The notes beneath the pieces were generated by a model. It was given only the letters and a program-made list of their open reading frames with translations, was not told the origin of the DNA and ran no database searches. Below are positions 5,111 through 57,647 of a DNA stretch of 64,000 nucleotides, in pieces. Location: the NCBI GenBank assembly GCA_036405975.1, contig DASWWM010000013.1, forward strand, positions 40,649 to 104,648, given 5' to 3'. Both the position numbers and the translations under genes were made by a program. Positions within the stretch are counted from its first letter, which is position 1. Each line of letters begins with the position of its first letter. This DNA comes from Minisyncoccota bacterium (GTDB lineage Bacteria > Patescibacteriota > Minisyncoccia > Phycocordibacterales > CAIZLB01).

Positions 5111-5164
5111 TCATAACTAATCAACACGTACTCTCAAGGCTAACGAATGTCCGTGATATAATCA

Positions 5165-18719: not shown

Positions 18720-18764
18720 ATTTCTTCACTTACTAATCTGATATAATACATTCAACAAAAAAAC

Positions 18765-35228: not shown

Positions 35229-35303
35229 TTCGAGTCAGCAAAGGCTCGTCACTCTCGTTCATATTCTCCTTGGCAGGGCTTCATGTCGCTGTGATATAAT
35301 TTC

Positions 35304-37206: not shown

Positions 37207-37680
37207 ATGTTTGGTTGTGCCTATAAGCCGAATTCTGTGCCCGCGTCGCGTGCCGGCCGAAACCGGACCTTCGCGGGCGATAGCAATTTATCTGGGCCTC
37301 ATGTTGCCATGGGGCTCGAGCGACTCTCCATGTCTCGCATGAGCGGGACTAGGCGCGGTCTTGCACTCGGATAAGGATTTTGCCGTTTCACCACGCGCTT
37401 GCTTGTACATGTATACGCATGTTCATCTGATGTACCAGATGCGCATGCCCTTGCGGGGATGCGCGTCACTGCTCGCACCTCTTGGCTTGCGCCAGACGGG
37501 AATTACCCGCTACCTGCTTCTCATGCTTTGCATTCTCGATCGGAGATGTCCCGATGCCTTGCGGCTTTGGACATGTGATCGAAAAGAGGGAATATGAGAG
37601 AGTGTTCGGACTTTCCTCCGCTTCCGTTCGTACTCCATACGGAGCCGTTTCCGGCAAGCAGTAGCTATCCGACACAACAT
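37207..37680 (-). ncRNA. rnpB: RNase P RNA, bacterial type A
   Basis: The minus strand carries GGAGGAAAGTCCGAACAC (P4 5' strand, universal GGAAAGUCCG) near 37601-37618 and ACAGAATTCGGCTTATAGGC (P4 3' strand, ACAGAAnCCGGCUUA) near 37218-37238. It also has GGGUAAUUCCCG and AGAUAAAU-like internal motifs. The 5' GUUGUGUC pairs with the 3' GGCACAAC to form P1. No long ORF spans this GC-rich segment. Confidence 0.8.
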
Positions 37681-37684
37681 ATAT

Positions 37685-37713
37685 ATTATACCATGATTTT
37701 TATTTTATAACAA
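37685..37713 (-). promoter_or_regulatory. Sigma-70-type promoter for rnpB
   Basis: On the minus strand: TTGTTA, a 17-nt spacer, then TATAAT, about 7 nt upstream of the inferred RNase P RNA 5' end. Confidence 0.45.
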
Positions 37714-40576: not shown

Positions 40577-40661
40577 GTGAAGATTATATCAAAAAACCGG
40601 GCCCTAGAAATGGCCCGGTTTATGAAGATTCATGGCCTGGAGCGGCCGGAAAATCCAGAGA

Positions 40662-45073: not shown

Positions 45074-45703
45074 ATGCCACACGAATCATTGAAAACAGCC
45101 ACCGGGGCTCCATTCACGGTCCTTGTCTCGGTAACGGACAAATCCGGCCTCTGTCTCCTGAAGCCTCTTGCCGAACGCGGTGCTCGCTTCGTTTCAACCG
45201 GCGGCACTGCCAGGGCGCTGCGTGAGACCCACGGCATCGATTGCATCGATGTCTCCGTGGTCACTGGCTTCCCGGAAATTCTGGACGGTCGAGTCAAGGT
45301 GCTTCATCCGAATATATTTGGCGGCTTGCTCGCTGATCAGAGGAATCCGACACACATGCAGACGTTGAAGGAATTGGGCATCGGCTTGTTCGATGCAGTC
45401 TTTGTCAATCTGTATGACTTCGCTGGTAACCCCCGCGTTTCCGAAATTGATGTTGGCGGTCCGTCAGCTCTCCGTGCGGCAGCGAAAGCCGGTTTGACCG
45501 TCGTTACGGATGTTAGCGATTACGAAGAGGTCGTCGCTGAAATCTGCGATCGCGGCGGCTGGGTCTCGTCCGGCAAGCGTCTTCAGCTGATTGCGAAGGT
45601 ATTCGACTATACTTCGAAGTATGATGCTGCGATTTGCGAATGGGTCGAAGGCCAAATCATCGAAGGTAAAGATCCTTTCGCTGAGATGGTTTCGCCTCAT
45701 TGA
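45074..45703 (+). CDS. PurH N-terminal (MGS-like IMP cyclohydrolase) domain only, with no AICAR transformylase domain. Either a standalone domain protein or a gene remnant.
   Basis: VSVTDKSGL, STGGTARAL, VTGFPEILDGRVKVLHPNIFGGLL, VFVNLYDFA and IDVGGPSALRAAAK all match the PurH N-domain. The ORF stops after 209 aa. Confidence 0.6.
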   Translation: MPHESLKTATGAPFTVLVSVTDKSGLCLLKPLAERGARFVSTGGTARALRETHGIDCIDVSVVTGFPEILDGRVKVLHPNIFGGLLADQRNPTHMQTLKELGIGLFDAVFVNLYDFAGNPRVSEIDVGGPSALRAAAKAGLTVVTDVSDYEEVVAEICDRGGWVSSGKRLQLIAKVFDYTSKYDAAICEWVEGQIIEGKDPFAEMVSPH

Positions 45704-45732
45704 TACCAGGCAAAAGCTGTATCGTCATTACA

Positions 45733-45762
45733 AAAACCCAGGAACTTTGGTTCCTGGGTTTT
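45733..45762. terminator. Bidirectional terminator hairpin
   Basis: aaaacccaggaac-ttt-ggttcctgggtttt. Confidence 0.5.
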
Positions 45763-45780
45763 CTTATTTATATAAACGAA

Positions 45781-51474: not shown

Positions 51475-51588
51475 ACTGGTCAGCAGGACAGTGAACTTAG
51501 AAAATAAAGCGGGCTCGGGCCTGCGATACGGGATGCCAAAAGCATCTCATTTTCTTTGCATTTGAAATCAAAATAGAAGGAGGACGGA

Positions 51589-52650
51589 ATGAGGAGAATA
51601 CATGAATTGTTGGTGAATGCTGTATCCGGAGAGAATCCGTTATTCGGGAAAGGGATCTTTGCCTTTCAAAATATTGATGGCAAACGGGCATATTTTCCGA
51701 TCGACGTATCGGGCAAGGGCAATGAATGCCAAGTCAGCGACTTTTCGCAGTTCGACATCGCATCCATTACCAAATTTTTCCTTACTATCCTGTATCACAT
51801 TCTCAGGGAACGATTTGGAAAATTCGATAACAATACGTTGGTCGCGCCTGTTCTCGGCATGTCGGGTGCTTTTACCGAGCATCTGACTGTCGGGCATCTG
51901 CTTCAGTTCTGTGCCCAATTCACTGCAAAAGGGTATCCTACAAAGGATATCGTTGCGCGCAGCAAAAACGGAGTGGTGAATGGCCTGACGGAAACCTTGA
52001 CCTCATGCGGTCTTGAGAAGATGCCGGGCGAGTCATGGACATACGGGAATCCGCATTCGATTCTGCTTGGGTTTTTCCTTGAGCGGGCAATGGGCGAGTC
52101 GCTGGAATCATTGATGCAGAAGCATCTGCTGGATCCGCTTGATATGCACAGGACTACCGTGAGGCCTGTGCCTGACGGAAGTGTCATTCAGTCAGGCAAA
52201 GAGACTTCTGGCGGAACGATTCATGATCCGACCGCGAGAGCCGCCTTGAGTGAAGGGAGGGTGATTGGGTCGGCGGGATATTTCTCGACGGCCTCTGATC
52301 TTCTGAATCTCCTTGGGATGATTCACCAGGGAGGAATGCATGGCGAGAATCGGATCATCTCTGGGGAAACCGCTCGAACATTGCATGCCGGAATGCTGCC
52401 GATATTCGGAAATGGGGCGGGCAAATGGAATGTGTACCGAAAAGGTCTCGTTCCTGAAGCGTTCATGGACGATCTTGCCATATTCAAGCTTGGCCATACG
52501 GGCTGCATAGTCTTTGTCTCAAAAAGGCACGGTATATGCGGAACGGTACTGACTGACTACCTTATGTATCATTCTGAGTCAGAAAAAAGGACGCCTCTGT
52601 ATGGGTTGTTCGCTCAGCTCGGTACGGCAGCAGGCCTTTGTCTGCTGTAA
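51589..52650 (+). CDS. Serine hydrolase of the beta-lactamase/PBP-like family
   Basis: SITK (SxxK) active-site motif near the N-terminus and overall beta-lactamase-fold length. Confidence 0.6.
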   Translation: MRRIHELLVNAVSGENPLFGKGIFAFQNIDGKRAYFPIDVSGKGNECQVSDFSQFDIASITKFFLTILYHILRERFGKFDNNTLVAPVLGMSGAFTEHLTVGHLLQFCAQFTAKGYPTKDIVARSKNGVVNGLTETLTSCGLEKMPGESWTYGNPHSILLGFFLERAMGESLESLMQKHLLDPLDMHRTTVRPVPDGSVIQSGKETSGGTIHDPTARAALSEGRVIGSAGYFSTASDLLNLLGMIHQGGMHGENRIISGETARTLHAGMLPIFGNGAGKWNVYRKGLVPEAFMDDLAIFKLGHTGCIVFVSKRHGICGTVLTDYLMYHSESEKRTPLYGLFAQLGTAAGLCLL

Positions 52651-52818
52651 TTCGGCTGGCGTTTCATTACAGGCCCGGCATCGCAGTTGTATGCGATGCC
52701 GGGCTATCTTGTTTTCTTAATCAGCAATCCGTGGTATGAATGCATTTGGTAAAAAAAAGATCTTTGGGCCAGAACCGTTTCTGGCTTTGATTTGGCTGAA
52801 CATAAACAAGGAGGGAAT

Positions 52819-53202
52819 ATGCAAAAAGGAGGAATAAATTCACTGGTAACGCCAATCGACGTACCGCCAGATGCTGAGTTTCTGATTAAGAATGTGCACT
52901 CTGGTAAAGGCTGCGATAATGGTCACTATCAAGGCAGCATTTCTGTGATCAGGACAGTGGGTGAGCATCTGAAGGTGGAGGAACGAGAACGGCATTTCAC
53001 GTTCATTGTCTCCACTCTCAATGGCTGCAGAATCCAGTGCAATGTCTACTCTTCAAGCGGCGACACGGTGGGCCATGCGGAAAAACTGGGGGAATCGTTC
53101 ATCGATGCTCCTGAACCCGGTACGGGAAACAGCAGGCTGTGTGAGCACCTGATCAATGCATTGGAGGAGATCAAAAAACAGGCAGAGGAGAACAGGGGGT
53201 GA
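52819..53202 (+). CDS. Hypothetical protein (127 aa) with a strong Shine-Dalgarno and a TGA stop
   Basis: AAGGAGGG lies 4 nt before the ATG at 52819. ORF ends in TGA. Followed by a terminator. Confidence 0.4.
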   Translation: MQKGGINSLVTPIDVPPDAEFLIKNVHSGKGCDNGHYQGSISVIRTVGEHLKVEERERHFTFIVSTLNGCRIQCNVYSSSGDTVGHAEKLGESFIDAPEPGTGNSRLCEHLINALEEIKKQAEENRG

Positions 53203-53224
53203 GGCTCAGTAGCCTGATGGGCTG

Positions 53225-53262
53225 CCCCGGAACGAATGTTGATTTCGTTCCGGGGCTTTTAT
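53225..53262 (+). terminator. Rho-independent terminator
   Basis: ccccggaacgaa-tgttgat-ttcgttccgggg followed by cttttattt. Confidence 0.5.
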
Positions 53263-53311
53263 TTATGCTAAAATCGAATGACAGTAATAATCAGCTAACT
53301 AAGTTAAAAAA

Positions 53312-53671
53312 ATGGAATCAAATCCCGAGAACAGGGCTCCGTGGCAGAAGGTAGCAGAAGAAGAGGCGGCGGTCGAATATCCTTCTGGCCATGTCGAGGT
53401 TGTAAGGGAGGTCGAGACGGGACATGCTCGTGAGCTGGCTAAAATTAGAGAAGATAAGATGAAGAATTTCAGCGATCCCACTGAACTGTTCACCAAGATG
53501 GAGAAGGTCACGGCTTTCGTCAATCGACTCAGAGATCGGGTTGGTGATGCTGAGCTTGAAAGATACAGGGCGTACCACGCTCTTGTTGGAAGCACGCCGA
53601 TGGCTGACGTCTCCGATCTTATGGATCTGCCAGGAGGCGAAATCGAAAAATTCATCCGGCACGAGCTTTGA
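53312..53671 (+). CDS. Hypothetical acidic protein (119 aa) with a TGA stop
   Basis: ORF only. No family recognised. Confidence 0.35.
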   Translation: MESNPENRAPWQKVAEEEAAVEYPSGHVEVVREVETGHARELAKIREDKMKNFSDPTELFTKMEKVTAFVNRLRDRVGDAELERYRAYHALVGSTPMADVSDLMDLPGGEIEKFIRHEL

Positions 53672-53755
53672 TTTTCGCTTTTTCCCGCATTTCTGCTATA
53701 TTTTGACTCACGCATATAAGCCGCACGCCCAGGGCGCCTTTGCCTATACATATAT

Positions 53756-55672
53756 ATGAATCTAAAGAATATCAGGAACTTCAGCATCATCGCCCATATC
53801 GACCACGGAAAGTCCACGCTTGCCGACCGAATGCTTGAGCTTACGAATACCATCGAGAAGCGAAAGATGATGAATCAGGTTCTCGACAATATGGAACTCG
53901 AGCGAGAGAAGGGTATCACGATCAAGATGCGGCCCGTTCAGATGCACTATACGGTCAAAGCGGACATTGCTGCGACGAAAGGCGTCGAGGCTGGACAGTA
54001 CCAGCTGAACCTCATCGATACTCCGGGGCATATCGACTTCTCGTATGAAGTGTCCCGAGCTCTCAAAGCCGTTGAGGGTTCTATTCTTCTCGTGGACGCG
54101 ACGCAGGGTGTTCAGGCACAGACGCTGACGACGCTTCGAATGGCACAGGATGTGGGACTGAAGATTATCCCAGTTCTCTCAAAGGTGGATTCTCCTTTGG
54201 CACGACTTGATGATATCAAGGAGGAAATGATCACGCTTCTTGGCTGCGAGTTCGATGACATTATTGAGACGTCGGGAAAGACAGGTCAGGGTGTAGAGGG
54301 GCTTCTTCAGGAAATCATCAAGAAGATCCCTGCGCCTGTCGAGGAAATGCCTCAGTCAGGAAGCTTCCGAGGTCTCGTATTCGATTTTCAATATTCAAAT
54401 CATAAAGGCGTAATCGTATTCGTCCGAGCAATGGACGGAACGGTCAAGAAAGGCGATGAGCTTCAGTTCAAGATTGCTGGGGAAAAATTCTATGCGCTCG
54501 AAGTCGGAATTTTCACTCCTGAAGAAGTCTCTACGGGAACTCTCGAGCCGGGACAAATCGGCTATATCGTAACTGGAATTAAGCAGCCGGGTATTGCATC
54601 AGTGGGAGATACCATCACTTTGAATAAGAAGCCTCTTCCGGAGCTTGCCGGTTATATGAGCCCTTCTCCGGTGGTATGGGCTTCGGTATACCCAGAAGAT
54701 GCCGACGACTTTGAGCTTCTCAAGCAGGCGCTGGGAAGGCTTCGACTTTCAGACTCAGCCTTCTCTCATGAAGAGGAGTCCTCGGGCTCCCTCGGGCGAG
54801 GATTCCGGTGCGGGTTCCTCGGACTCCTTCATCTCGAAATCATCACCGAGCGACTTAAGCGAGAGTTCAATCTGAACCTTGTCATCGCGACGCCGAGCAT
54901 TACTTATGAAGTTACGCTCAAGTCCGGATCAAGCGGCGCGGCAGTTCAGAACAGCCTTGGAAATATTTACTCGGGCCAGATCAAGACTGACGAAGTTACG
55001 GGCGAGCGAACGGTCATGGTGTATTCGCCGTCGCTTTTCCCAGACCATGGTCAGTATGAGCGCGTGCGAGAGCCTTGGGTTAAGCTTTCGATCATCACCC
55101 CTGACACATATACCGGTCCAATCTATCAGCTTCTCTATGATCATGAAGCGGAGCTCAAAGACACCGTGTCTTTCGGAGATGGACGAGCACAGCTCATTAT
55201 CGATATGCCGCTTCGAGAGCTCATGCGAAACTTCTTTGACGAGCTCAAGAGCATCTCTTCAGGATACGCATCTCTTTCGTATGAGTTCGAAGGCTTGCGA
55301 GAAGCGGACGTGACACGAATGGACATTCTCGTTGCTGACGAGCCTGTTGAGGCATTTACAAAAGTGGTCGCAAATAGAAGGACGGACGAAGAAGGAAACA
55401 AGTCTGTTGACCGACTTGAAGCAGTGCTCCCGCGGCAGCTCTTCACTACGAAGATTCAGGCAAAGGTCAATGGACGAATTATCGCGTCGCGAACTCTTTC
55501 TGCGCTCCGAAAGGACGTAACCGGCTATCTGTACGGAGGCGATATTACGCGAAAGATGAAGCTCCTCGAAAAGCAGAAGAAAGGAAAGAAGAAGATGCTT
55601 GAGCGAGGGAAGGGTCAGGTGAACATTCCGCATGATGTGTTCCTGAAGATGATGAAGTCGGGAGATAACTAA
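53756..55672 (+). CDS. lepA: Elongation factor 4
   Basis: IRNFSIIAHIDHGKSTLADR, DTPGHIDF, and a LepA-specific C-terminal domain. Confidence 0.9.
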   Translation: MNLKNIRNFSIIAHIDHGKSTLADRMLELTNTIEKRKMMNQVLDNMELEREKGITIKMRPVQMHYTVKADIAATKGVEAGQYQLNLIDTPGHIDFSYEVSRALKAVEGSILLVDATQGVQAQTLTTLRMAQDVGLKIIPVLSKVDSPLARLDDIKEEMITLLGCEFDDIIETSGKTGQGVEGLLQEIIKKIPAPVEEMPQSGSFRGLVFDFQYSNHKGVIVFVRAMDGTVKKGDELQFKIAGEKFYALEVGIFTPEEVSTGTLEPGQIGYIVTGIKQPGIASVGDTITLNKKPLPELAGYMSPSPVVWASVYPEDADDFELLKQALGRLRLSDSAFSHEEESSGSLGRGFRCGFLGLLHLEIITERLKREFNLNLVIATPSITYEVTLKSGSSGAAVQNSLGNIYSGQIKTDEVTGERTVMVYSPSLFPDHGQYERVREPWVKLSIITPDTYTGPIYQLLYDHEAELKDTVSFGDGRAQLIIDMPLRELMRNFFDELKSISSGYASLSYEFEGLREADVTRMDILVADEPVEAFTKVVANRRTDEEGNKSVDRLEAVLPRQLFTTKIQAKVNGRIIASRTLSALRKDVTGYLYGGDITRKMKLLEKQKKGKKKMLERGKGQVNIPHDVFLKMMKSGDN

Positions 55673-57425: not shown

Positions 57426-57647
57426 ATGAGTGAAAACAGTAAGTTCCCAAAATACTTGATGCAGATTGATGACAGGCTCGAATTCCTTCCCATCGAGCAA
57501 GCGTGCATCGCATACAATTCAGGATGGCAAAAGGTCGACTTCGGTTCTTGCGTCATTCTCGGCCCAGATTTTTCTGTCAGAAAAATGACTGACGAAGACA
57601 GACATAAGATCTCGAGGGCCGCTGAAGATCACGATGCGAGCAAGTGA
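57426..57647 (+). CDS. Hypothetical small protein (73 aa), TGA stop
   Basis: MSENSKFPKYLMQ..., AAAGGA upstream. No family recognised. Confidence 0.3.
   Translation: MSENSKFPKYLMQIDDRLEFLPIEQACIAYNSGWQKVDFGSCVILGPDFSVRKMTDEDRHKISRAAEDHDASK

Follow-up and report, generated by a model that had tools for sequence, protein, structure and literature searches.

The 64,000-nt stretch of DNA analysed here, called the window, comes from a metagenome-assembled genome (MAG) of an uncultured Candidatus Paceibacterota bacterium that belongs to the candidate phyla radiation (CPR; Patescibacteria) and has a G+C content (GC) of 51%. Beyond the gene of an ABC transporter it encodes a beta-lactamase-fold serine hydrolase and two small open reading frames (ORFs), ORF1 and ORF2, followed by the conserved gene lepA (Table 1). 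NCBI labels the products of ORF1 and ORF2 as hypothetical proteins VGE62_01490 and VGE62_01495. A first-pass annotation had described the two ORFs as a pair with foreign-looking signals, namely TGA stop codons in both and a strong Shine-Dalgarno (SD) sequence before the first, interrupting a housekeeping stretch of a genome that ends its genes in TAA or TAG and has weak or absent ribosome-binding sites. It had taken them to be either recently acquired genes, such as a toxin/immunity or phage-derived pair, or not genes at all. The coordinates, the TGA codons and the SD sequence 4 nt ahead of the ORF1 start codon were all confirmed. After comparison with a sister genome, GCA_964550955.1, the best explanation, and in our judgement a probable one, is a variable accessory slot that holds an old, real ORF1 and a later orphan, ORF2.

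Table 1. Coordinates in the window of the features of the hydrolase-lepA region and of two other genes with TGA stop codons.
Feature	Position	Strand	Remarks
SD of beta-lactamase-fold gene	51577..51583	+	AAGGAGG, 5 nt before its ATG
Beta-lactamase-fold serine hydrolase gene	51589..52650	+	TAA stop; Pfam PF00144, 9e-28
Intrinsic terminator of beta-lactamase-fold gene	52672..52705	+	14-bp stem
SD of ORF1	52808..52815	+	AAGGAGGG; GGAGG ends 4 nt before ATG
ORF1	52819..53202	+	127 aa; ATG 52819, TGA 53200-53202; predicted isoelectric point (pI) 5.6, acidic, soluble
Intrinsic terminator of ORF1	53224..53266	+	13-bp stem, 9 GC pairs, T-run
Direct repeat, left copy	53255..53264	+	GCTTTTATTT, 10 nt; tail of ORF1 terminator
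Extended -10-like box	53266..53274	+	TGCTAAAAT; 37 nt 5' of ORF2, just past ORF1 terminator; candidate promoter
ORF2	53312..53671	+	119 aa; ATG 53312, TGA 53669-53671; acidic (pI 5.0); no SD
Direct repeat, right copy	53665..53674	+	GCTTTGATTT; holds the ORF2 TGA
Region 5' of lepA	53672..53755	+	kept in sister genome; 47 nt at 89% identity
Extended -10 box of lepA	53694-53702	+	TGCTATATT; inside conserved lepA upstream region
lepA	53756..55672	+	conserved anchor gene; TAA stop
Stand-alone IMP cyclohydrolase gene	45074..45703	+	TGA stop; NCBIfam purH 1e-51, model positions 8-196 of 510
ORF3	57426..57647	+	73-aa orphan of uncertain status; TGA stop; after tRNA-Arg(CCT)

The stop codons of the window were counted in a set of 51 confident genes, made up of long non-overlapping ORFs and of short ORFs with a clearly positive codon score: 25 end in TAA, 26 in TAG and none in TGA. 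Since TGA makes up 63% of the stop trinucleotides in the window (2634 of 4164) and closes 67% of the spurious open frames inside real genes, its avoidance is not compositional. The first-pass claim that every stop is TAA or TAG held for this set; it failed for the stand-alone IMP cyclohydrolase gene, which ends in TGA and also refutes the claim that ORF3 is the only other TGA-terminated ORF. TAG is commoner than TGA throughout the class, a class-wide trait that is extreme in the window lineage: in conserved genes of related Paceibacteria, TGA provides 5-14% of the stops (rising with GC) and TAG 28-39%. None of 68 native genes of the window and the sister genome ends in TGA, versus 7 of 39 long ORFs in six GC-matched relatives (Fisher P = 6e-4, between gene sets that differ) and 7 of 49 when only the conserved genes of the same relatives are considered. 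When only TAA and TAG were counted as stops, no in-frame TGA was found in the confident genes (approximately 17,000 codons), which indicates the standard genetic code. Three tRNAs are encoded in the window: Thr(TGT), Arg(CCT) and Phe(GAA).

Ribosome-binding sites are as weak or absent as had been stated, with an SD sequence of at least 5 nt in just three of 50 window genes. The heptamer AAGGAGG occurs 13 times (8.3 expected), and only at ORF1 and at the beta-lactamase-fold gene is it correctly placed before a start codon. The counterparts of these two sites in the sister genome are homologous and weaker: AAGAGG before the hydrolase gene, and AAGAAAGGGAA, 11 nt from the ATG, before the ORF1 homologue. 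Another AAGGAGG lies inside ORF1 (52826-52832, codons 3-5, K-G-G), with no in-frame start codon at a suitable distance, and is probably coincidental. An extended -10 box, TGATATAAT, lies 2-17 nt on the 5' side of predicted start codons at 5154-5162, 18739-18747, 35292-35300, 40583-40591 (minus strand) and other gene starts; so short a distance from box to start suggests mRNAs that are leaderless or have very short leaders.

An exhaustive HMMER search of 1.84 billion representatives found a single true homologue of ORF1, the 120-aa protein P0003 (E 3.4e-14, 35% identity), whereas ORF1 itself was the only match in a word-indexed search of 5.8 billion proteins, and a profile built from ORF1 and P0003 added nothing; as far as these searches reach, the family has two known members. 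Residues 4-122 of ORF1 align with residues 3-118 of P0003, with a common N-terminus (M..GINS[LI]V) and C-terminal glycine. P0003 is encoded in GCA_964550955.1 (locus L088, 48% GC), adjoining the 5' side of lepA, in the order MFP-FtsX-ABC-beta-lactamase-[aminotransferase, 500-aa unknown protein, aldehyde dehydrogenase, ArgRS]-ORF1 homologue-lepA-DivIC-glutaredoxin-FKBP. Amino acid identity between the two genomes is 93% for lepA, 91% for FtsX, 88% for the ABC protein, 85% for glutaredoxin and 76% for DivIC, and is lower for the beta-lactamase-fold protein (61%), FKBP (50%) and ORF1 (35%). Occupying the same position, with 35% identity beside more conserved genes, ORF1 is evidently orthologous by position and has a much higher rate of evolution than the genes around it. 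In both orthologues the shared, aligned glycine is followed by TGA and then, within approximately 25 nt, by a terminator, which is clean in the sister copy as well. The orthologue with TGA at the same place implies that ORF1 predates the split of the two species and has kept its TGA stop since. Recent acquisition, judged by the refuting condition that the first-pass annotation had itself set, therefore fails as an account of ORF1; the absence from the sister locus that it would predict is seen for ORF2 alone. In the sister locus, the hydrolase gene is separated from the ORF1 orthologue by a 6.3-kb block (L088 3682-10000) of four genes, for a class-III aminotransferase, the 500-aa unknown protein, an aldehyde dehydrogenase and ArgRS; the 64-kb window contains no match to any of them.

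The alignment with P0003 also answers the suggestion that ORF1 might not be a gene. Identity by codon position is 0.53/0.58/0.32, with third positions at the random level, and the ratio of non-synonymous to synonymous differences (pN/pS) is 0.53 with synonymous sites saturated, a pattern that indicates selection on the ORF1 protein in its frame. A tblastn search finds the sister copy at 2e-20, while a DNA-level search gives no match. A plus-strand ORF of this length beginning with ATG is also uncommon in shuffles of the gap in which ORF1 lies (P = 0.008). Judged by this protein-level conservation, ORF1 is a real, fast-evolving, lineage-specific gene. Seven short Logan contigs from one study (SRR11449177-88) match the DNA of the locus at 100%, leaving zero population variation for an estimate of dN/dS. 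Two other matches were set aside: P0004, a eukaryote-like EF-hand repeat protein (E 6.6e-4), is a repeat-driven chance match to ORF1, and a marginal PADLOC match of P0003 to a Type I specificity subunit (E 0.01) was treated as chance.

Neither ORF1 nor ORF2 belongs to a recognised family, as had been noted from the letters alone. Searches of ORF1, ORF2 and ORF3 against Pfam, PHROGs, NCBIfam and PADLOC gave nothing significant; for ORF1 and ORF2 there was no Pfam, NCBIfam or PADLOC match at E below 0.07, PHROGs matches had E of at least 0.05, IMG/VR gave none, GenBank phages gave tblastn matches with E of at least 0.5 or nothing, and PDB sequence searches gave only matches with E of at least 1.2. 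Both proteins are acidic and hydrophilic, with nothing in their sequences to suggest secretion or membrane insertion. The paired cysteine and histidine residues to which the first-pass annotation drew attention in ORF1 are conserved in part: H27, H36, C74, H86 and C108 are shared with P0003, and C32, C70, H50, H59 and H110 are not. A Pfam scan of ORF1 gave no zinc-finger family match, and the protein has no CxxC pair. The structure model of ORF1 consists of a helix, a four-strand meander and a C-terminal helix, with a mean predicted local distance difference test score (pLDDT) of 54, too poor for ligand geometry, and the fold matches of this low-confidence model are scattered and meaningless. 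As a weak guess, ORF1 might be a small soluble alpha/beta protein that binds a metal through H27, H36, C74, H86 and C108, the conservation of these five residues being a faint hint in that direction.

The hydrolase gene, with the SxxK motif ASITK, had been counted among the housekeeping flanks of the two ORFs, a role that does not suit it: it carries its own AAGGAGG and is as lineage-restricted as ORF1, and it is part of the same lineage-restricted anomalous block. Its orthologue in the sister genome ends in TGA, versus TAA in the window, within two residues. Codon scores set the block apart in a similar manner. Native genes, cut into 120-codon chunks, have a mean score of 0.325 (standard deviation 0.126), and the hydrolase gene (0.105, the 5.6th percentile of native chunks), ORF1 (0.115), ORF2 (0.176), ORF3 (0.057) and the IMP cyclohydrolase gene (0.107) all fall in the lowest 3-10%.

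The space between the ABC transporter and lepA differs among relatives. No homologue of ORF1, ORF2 or the hydrolase was found near lepA in 80 related Paceibacteria loci (lepA 46-76% identical), and both ORFs are absent even from relatives whose lepA is approximately 70% identical. The gene order MFP-FtsX-ABC-lepA is kept in four of these relatives (L009, L011, L014 and L017), each of which has one distinct ORF of 135-273 aa in the ABC-lepA gap, approximately 100-1000 nt on the 5' side of lepA; these ORFs show no relationship with each other or with either ORF1 or ORF2, three of them lie on the opposite strand, and a hydrophobic segment is present at the N-terminus of one. Such unrelated orphans in one and the same gap indicate that the space 5' of lepA is a slot of lineage-specific gene turnover.

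ORF2 occupies an indel within this slot. The distance from the ORF1 homologue to lepA in the sister genome is only 141 nt, with one junction, GGCTTTTCTTTCGC, where the window has a segment of approximately 410 nt containing ORF2; tblastn found no match to ORF2 in the sister locus up to E = 10. The conserved upstream region of lepA (TTTCGCTTTTT..ATTTCTGCTATATTTTGACTCACG) starts exactly at the ORF2 stop codon. Bounded by two copies of the 10-nt direct repeat, the segment may have been inserted, with duplication of its target, or may instead have been lost from the sister lineage by deletion between the short repeats. Repeat searches and self-BLAST revealed neither a further copy of the segment nor inverted terminal repeats nor an integrase. 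In type, the box TGCTAAAAT on the 5' side of ORF2 matches that of lepA, TGCTATATT, and those of native genes, TGATATAAT. A clean terminator had been reported after each ORF; ORF1 has one, and ORF2 is followed only by a weak AU-rich hairpin that consumes the T-run itself (z = +1.3). An Rfam search of 52600-53800 in E-value mode gave nothing but weak matches of the terminator hairpins to small RNA models, and identified no RNA gene or family.

Whether ORF2 is a gene was judged from its length and composition. In dinucleotide shuffles of the 499-nt gap that contains it, a plus-strand ATG ORF of at least 119 codons arises with P = 0.002. Its codon score exceeds those of three validated genes, and only 1.5% of off-frame chunks without stops score as high, although it is below that of 90% of native chunks. 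GC at the three codon positions is 0.64/0.37/0.54, in the order GC1 > GC3 > GC2 that is typical of coding sequence. The model of ORF2 is all-helical, and a fold search with it found no match. The sole match to ORF2 among metagenome contigs (L091) was rejected: it was seeded by the search-pattern 8-mer GDAELERY and covers 38 residues at the end of a GC-rich, unrelated contig, with an E-value relative to the candidate set only. On balance ORF2 is probably a real gene and a genome-specific orphan; the earlier suggestion that it is not a gene has become less likely and retains some standing. A minor possibility is that ORF2 arose de novo, on a segment recently inserted between the genes.

In the reading that we favour, the interval from the ABC-transporter ATPase gene to lepA would be a variable slot that here holds the hydrolase gene, ORF1 and ORF2. 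ORF1, with its TGA stop, was already there in the common ancestor with GCA_964550955.1; it has an SD-led leader and an intrinsic terminator to itself, and its product is a small acidic cytoplasmic protein. ORF2 may be a later, genome-specific orphan on the indel of approximately 410 nt bounded by the 10-nt direct repeat, probably transcribed from the extended -10 promoter right behind the ORF1 terminator, and its TGA may simply be the first stop met in the T-rich flank, TGA being the commonest stop triplet. TGA stops, strong SD sequences and low codon adaptation would then be the signature of accessory genes that are weakly selected or horizontally derived, and such signals appear foreign because the native genes have purged TGA stops and mostly initiate without SD sequences. 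As to origin, the block may consist of partly adapted genes from donors that use SD sequences and TGA, or of young or weakly expressed genes that have escaped selection against TGA; both fit. The strong SD sequences speak for a donor, whereas weak selection agrees better with the host-like GC and with the lack of a donor homologue. The check on foreignness that the first-pass annotation had proposed is similarly divided: the codon scores of the two ORFs are low (the lowest 6-10% of native chunks), while their GC at third codon positions (GC3) is host-like.

Several points weigh against this reading. The GC3 of ORF1 and ORF2 (0.54-0.56, versus 0.59 in native genes) and their overall GC resemble those of the host, no donor lineage was identified for the block, and its borders contain no integrase, tRNA or inverted repeat. 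The ORF1 family is confined to this lineage, which the birth of a gene or its rapid divergence would explain as readily as horizontal transfer. A distance of 6.3 kb between the hydrolase gene and the ORF1 orthologue in the sister genome suggests that they may be separate units, and the 10-nt repeat is T-rich and could have arisen by chance. The counts of TGA stops come from the 64 kb of the window genome and 20 kb of the sister. As for ORF2, its codon score lies between the native and spurious distributions and overlaps the upper tail of spurious ORFs, its model has low confidence (pLDDT 58), and no homologue was found in the 5.8 billion proteins of the word-indexed search, viral contigs, phage records, metagenome contigs or the PDB; lacking a homologue and an SD sequence, it could be non-functional.

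These last points lead to the alternative that survives best, namely that ORF2 (and perhaps ORF3 too) is no functional gene, but an open frame that arose by chance or is decaying on an indel without coding function, annotated by gene callers for its length only. We consider this unlikely, though it deserves to be taken seriously: ORF2 is absent from the sister genome and from the collections searched, has neither an SD sequence nor a clean terminator, yields a poor structure model, is overlapped by long antisense ORFs, and ends in the codon that closes 67% of the spurious frames of the window but none of the 51 confident genes. What makes a real gene the better choice is that only 0.2% of shuffles of the gap yield so long a plus-strand ATG ORF, that the codon score of ORF2 is higher than those of ORF1, the hydrolase gene and the IMP cyclohydrolase gene and rare among off-frame chunks, and that its codon-position GC pattern, its orientation with its neighbours and the extended -10-like box on its 5' side are those of a gene.

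The avoidance of TGA could also have a deeper cause. According to codon-capture theory, a codon must vanish from genes ahead of its reassignment, and TGA might now barely serve as a stop in this organism, or not at all, with release factor 2 (RF2) lost or weakened, as an intermediate toward reassignment of UGA of the kind seen in Gracilibacteria; ORFs that end in TGA would in that case be read through or give non-stop products. The absence of TGA stops from the confident genes although it provides most of the stop trinucleotides, the use of TAG as frequently as TAA, and the deficit of TGA relative to the GC-matched relatives would all fit, as would the nearly complete absence of TGA as a native stop in a phylum that includes the UGA-recoded Gracilibacteria and Absconditabacteria (code 25). 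Recoding of UGA to glycine is known elsewhere in the phylum, but a 2026 review confines it to Gracilibacteria/JAEDAM01 (PMC13293708), and conserved genes of related Paceibacteria retain TGA as a stop. Unlike in recoded CPR, no TGA lies in frame in conserved genes of the window, and TGA ends validated genes at conserved C-termini. ORF1 and its orthologue stop at the same aligned residue, and read-through would enter unrelated, non-conserved terminator hairpins; the same holds for the IMP cyclohydrolase gene. These observations contradict TGA as a sense codon, and on this evidence it appears to be a functional stop here. It is a legitimate, strongly disfavoured stop in this genome, surviving only in accessory genes. 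We therefore regard a loss or weakening of its function as very improbable, and the narrower proposal, that the lineage of the window genome and GCA_964550955.1 is close to losing UGA as a stop through a weak or missing RF2 in a state preceding reassignment, as highly doubtful. A literature search on avoidance of TGA stops, loss of RF2 (prfB), or SD and leaderless initiation in Patescibacteria/Paceibacteria found nothing specific.

Least credible of all is a horizontally acquired functional pair, whether toxin/immunity or phage-derived: although ORF1 and ORF2 are adjacent, small, acidic and on the same strand of a variable slot, with stop codons, SD and codon usage atypical of the host, the ORF1 orthologue stands without ORF2, with only 141 nt before lepA, a terminator with a 13-bp stem and a 109-nt spacer show that the two are not an operon, no toxin-antitoxin, defence or phage family was matched in PADLOC, Pfam, NCBIfam, PHROGs, IMG/VR or GenBank phages, and the host-like GC is accompanied by neither an integrase nor att-like repeats; around them lie the genes of an ABC transporter, a hydrolase and lepA.

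The two ORFs can be compared with known systems. They resemble the ORFans of variable slots in CPR genomes in being small and family-less, in their distribution (two genomes for ORF1, one for ORF2), in the fast divergence of ORF1 (35%, versus 76-93% in neighbours) and in the unrelated orphans that fill the slot in relatives, but differ from the usual ORFans of this kind in that their translation signals (TGA stops, an 8-nt SD) depart from those of native genes and in that the position and the TGA stop of ORF1 are conserved across two species. Their atypical codon usage, stop codon and ribosome-binding site, and their absence from most relatives, are features of genomic-island genes; unlike such genes, they have the GC and GC3 of the host and no integrase, flanking tRNA, long repeat or donor homologue, and ORF1 has been passed down by vertical inheritance for at least as long as the two species have been separate. 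Type II toxin-antitoxin and toxin-immunity pairs are likewise adjacent, small, on the same strand and in accessory regions, whereas ORF1 and ORF2 have a terminator between them, do not co-occur, and match no toxin-antitoxin or defence family.

Elsewhere in the window, the TGA of the IMP cyclohydrolase gene is followed by a terminator at approximately 45727-45765. This gene, which corresponds to the N-terminal 200 aa of purH without the AICAR-formyltransferase part, is an unusual find for a CPR genome and may represent either a remnant left by truncation or a gene built of a single domain. ORF3 has a weak AAGGA 10 nt upstream. At its position the sister genome has a gene for a 424-aa DUF2330 protein, which points to a second variable slot. 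A divergent class A bacterial RNase P RNA occupies 37208-37680 on the minus strand, in a gene-free gap of 650 nt; it covers the whole model (1-367) with E = 7e-18 but is missed at default Rfam thresholds (60 bits, versus a gathering score of 100). A TGGTATAAT box lies just 5' of it, at 37693 on the minus strand.

By itself the locus is of little weight: to the many uncharacterised small genes of the CPR it contributes a family with two members and an orphan ORF. For the annotation of such MAGs, a TGA stop combined with an SD sequence flags accessory genes, while TGA alone is also a hallmark of spurious ORFs. What remains most interesting is a property of the genome as a whole, namely the nearly complete avoidance of TGA stops and SD sequences, the use of TAG about as frequently as TAA, and -10 boxes that abut start codons. 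If UGA were indeed close to being lost as a stop, ORF1, ORF2 and the IMP cyclohydrolase gene would terminate poorly or be read through, which would act as a damper on newly acquired genes; and if RF2 were impaired, the lineage would be a natural intermediate in the reassignment of a stop codon.

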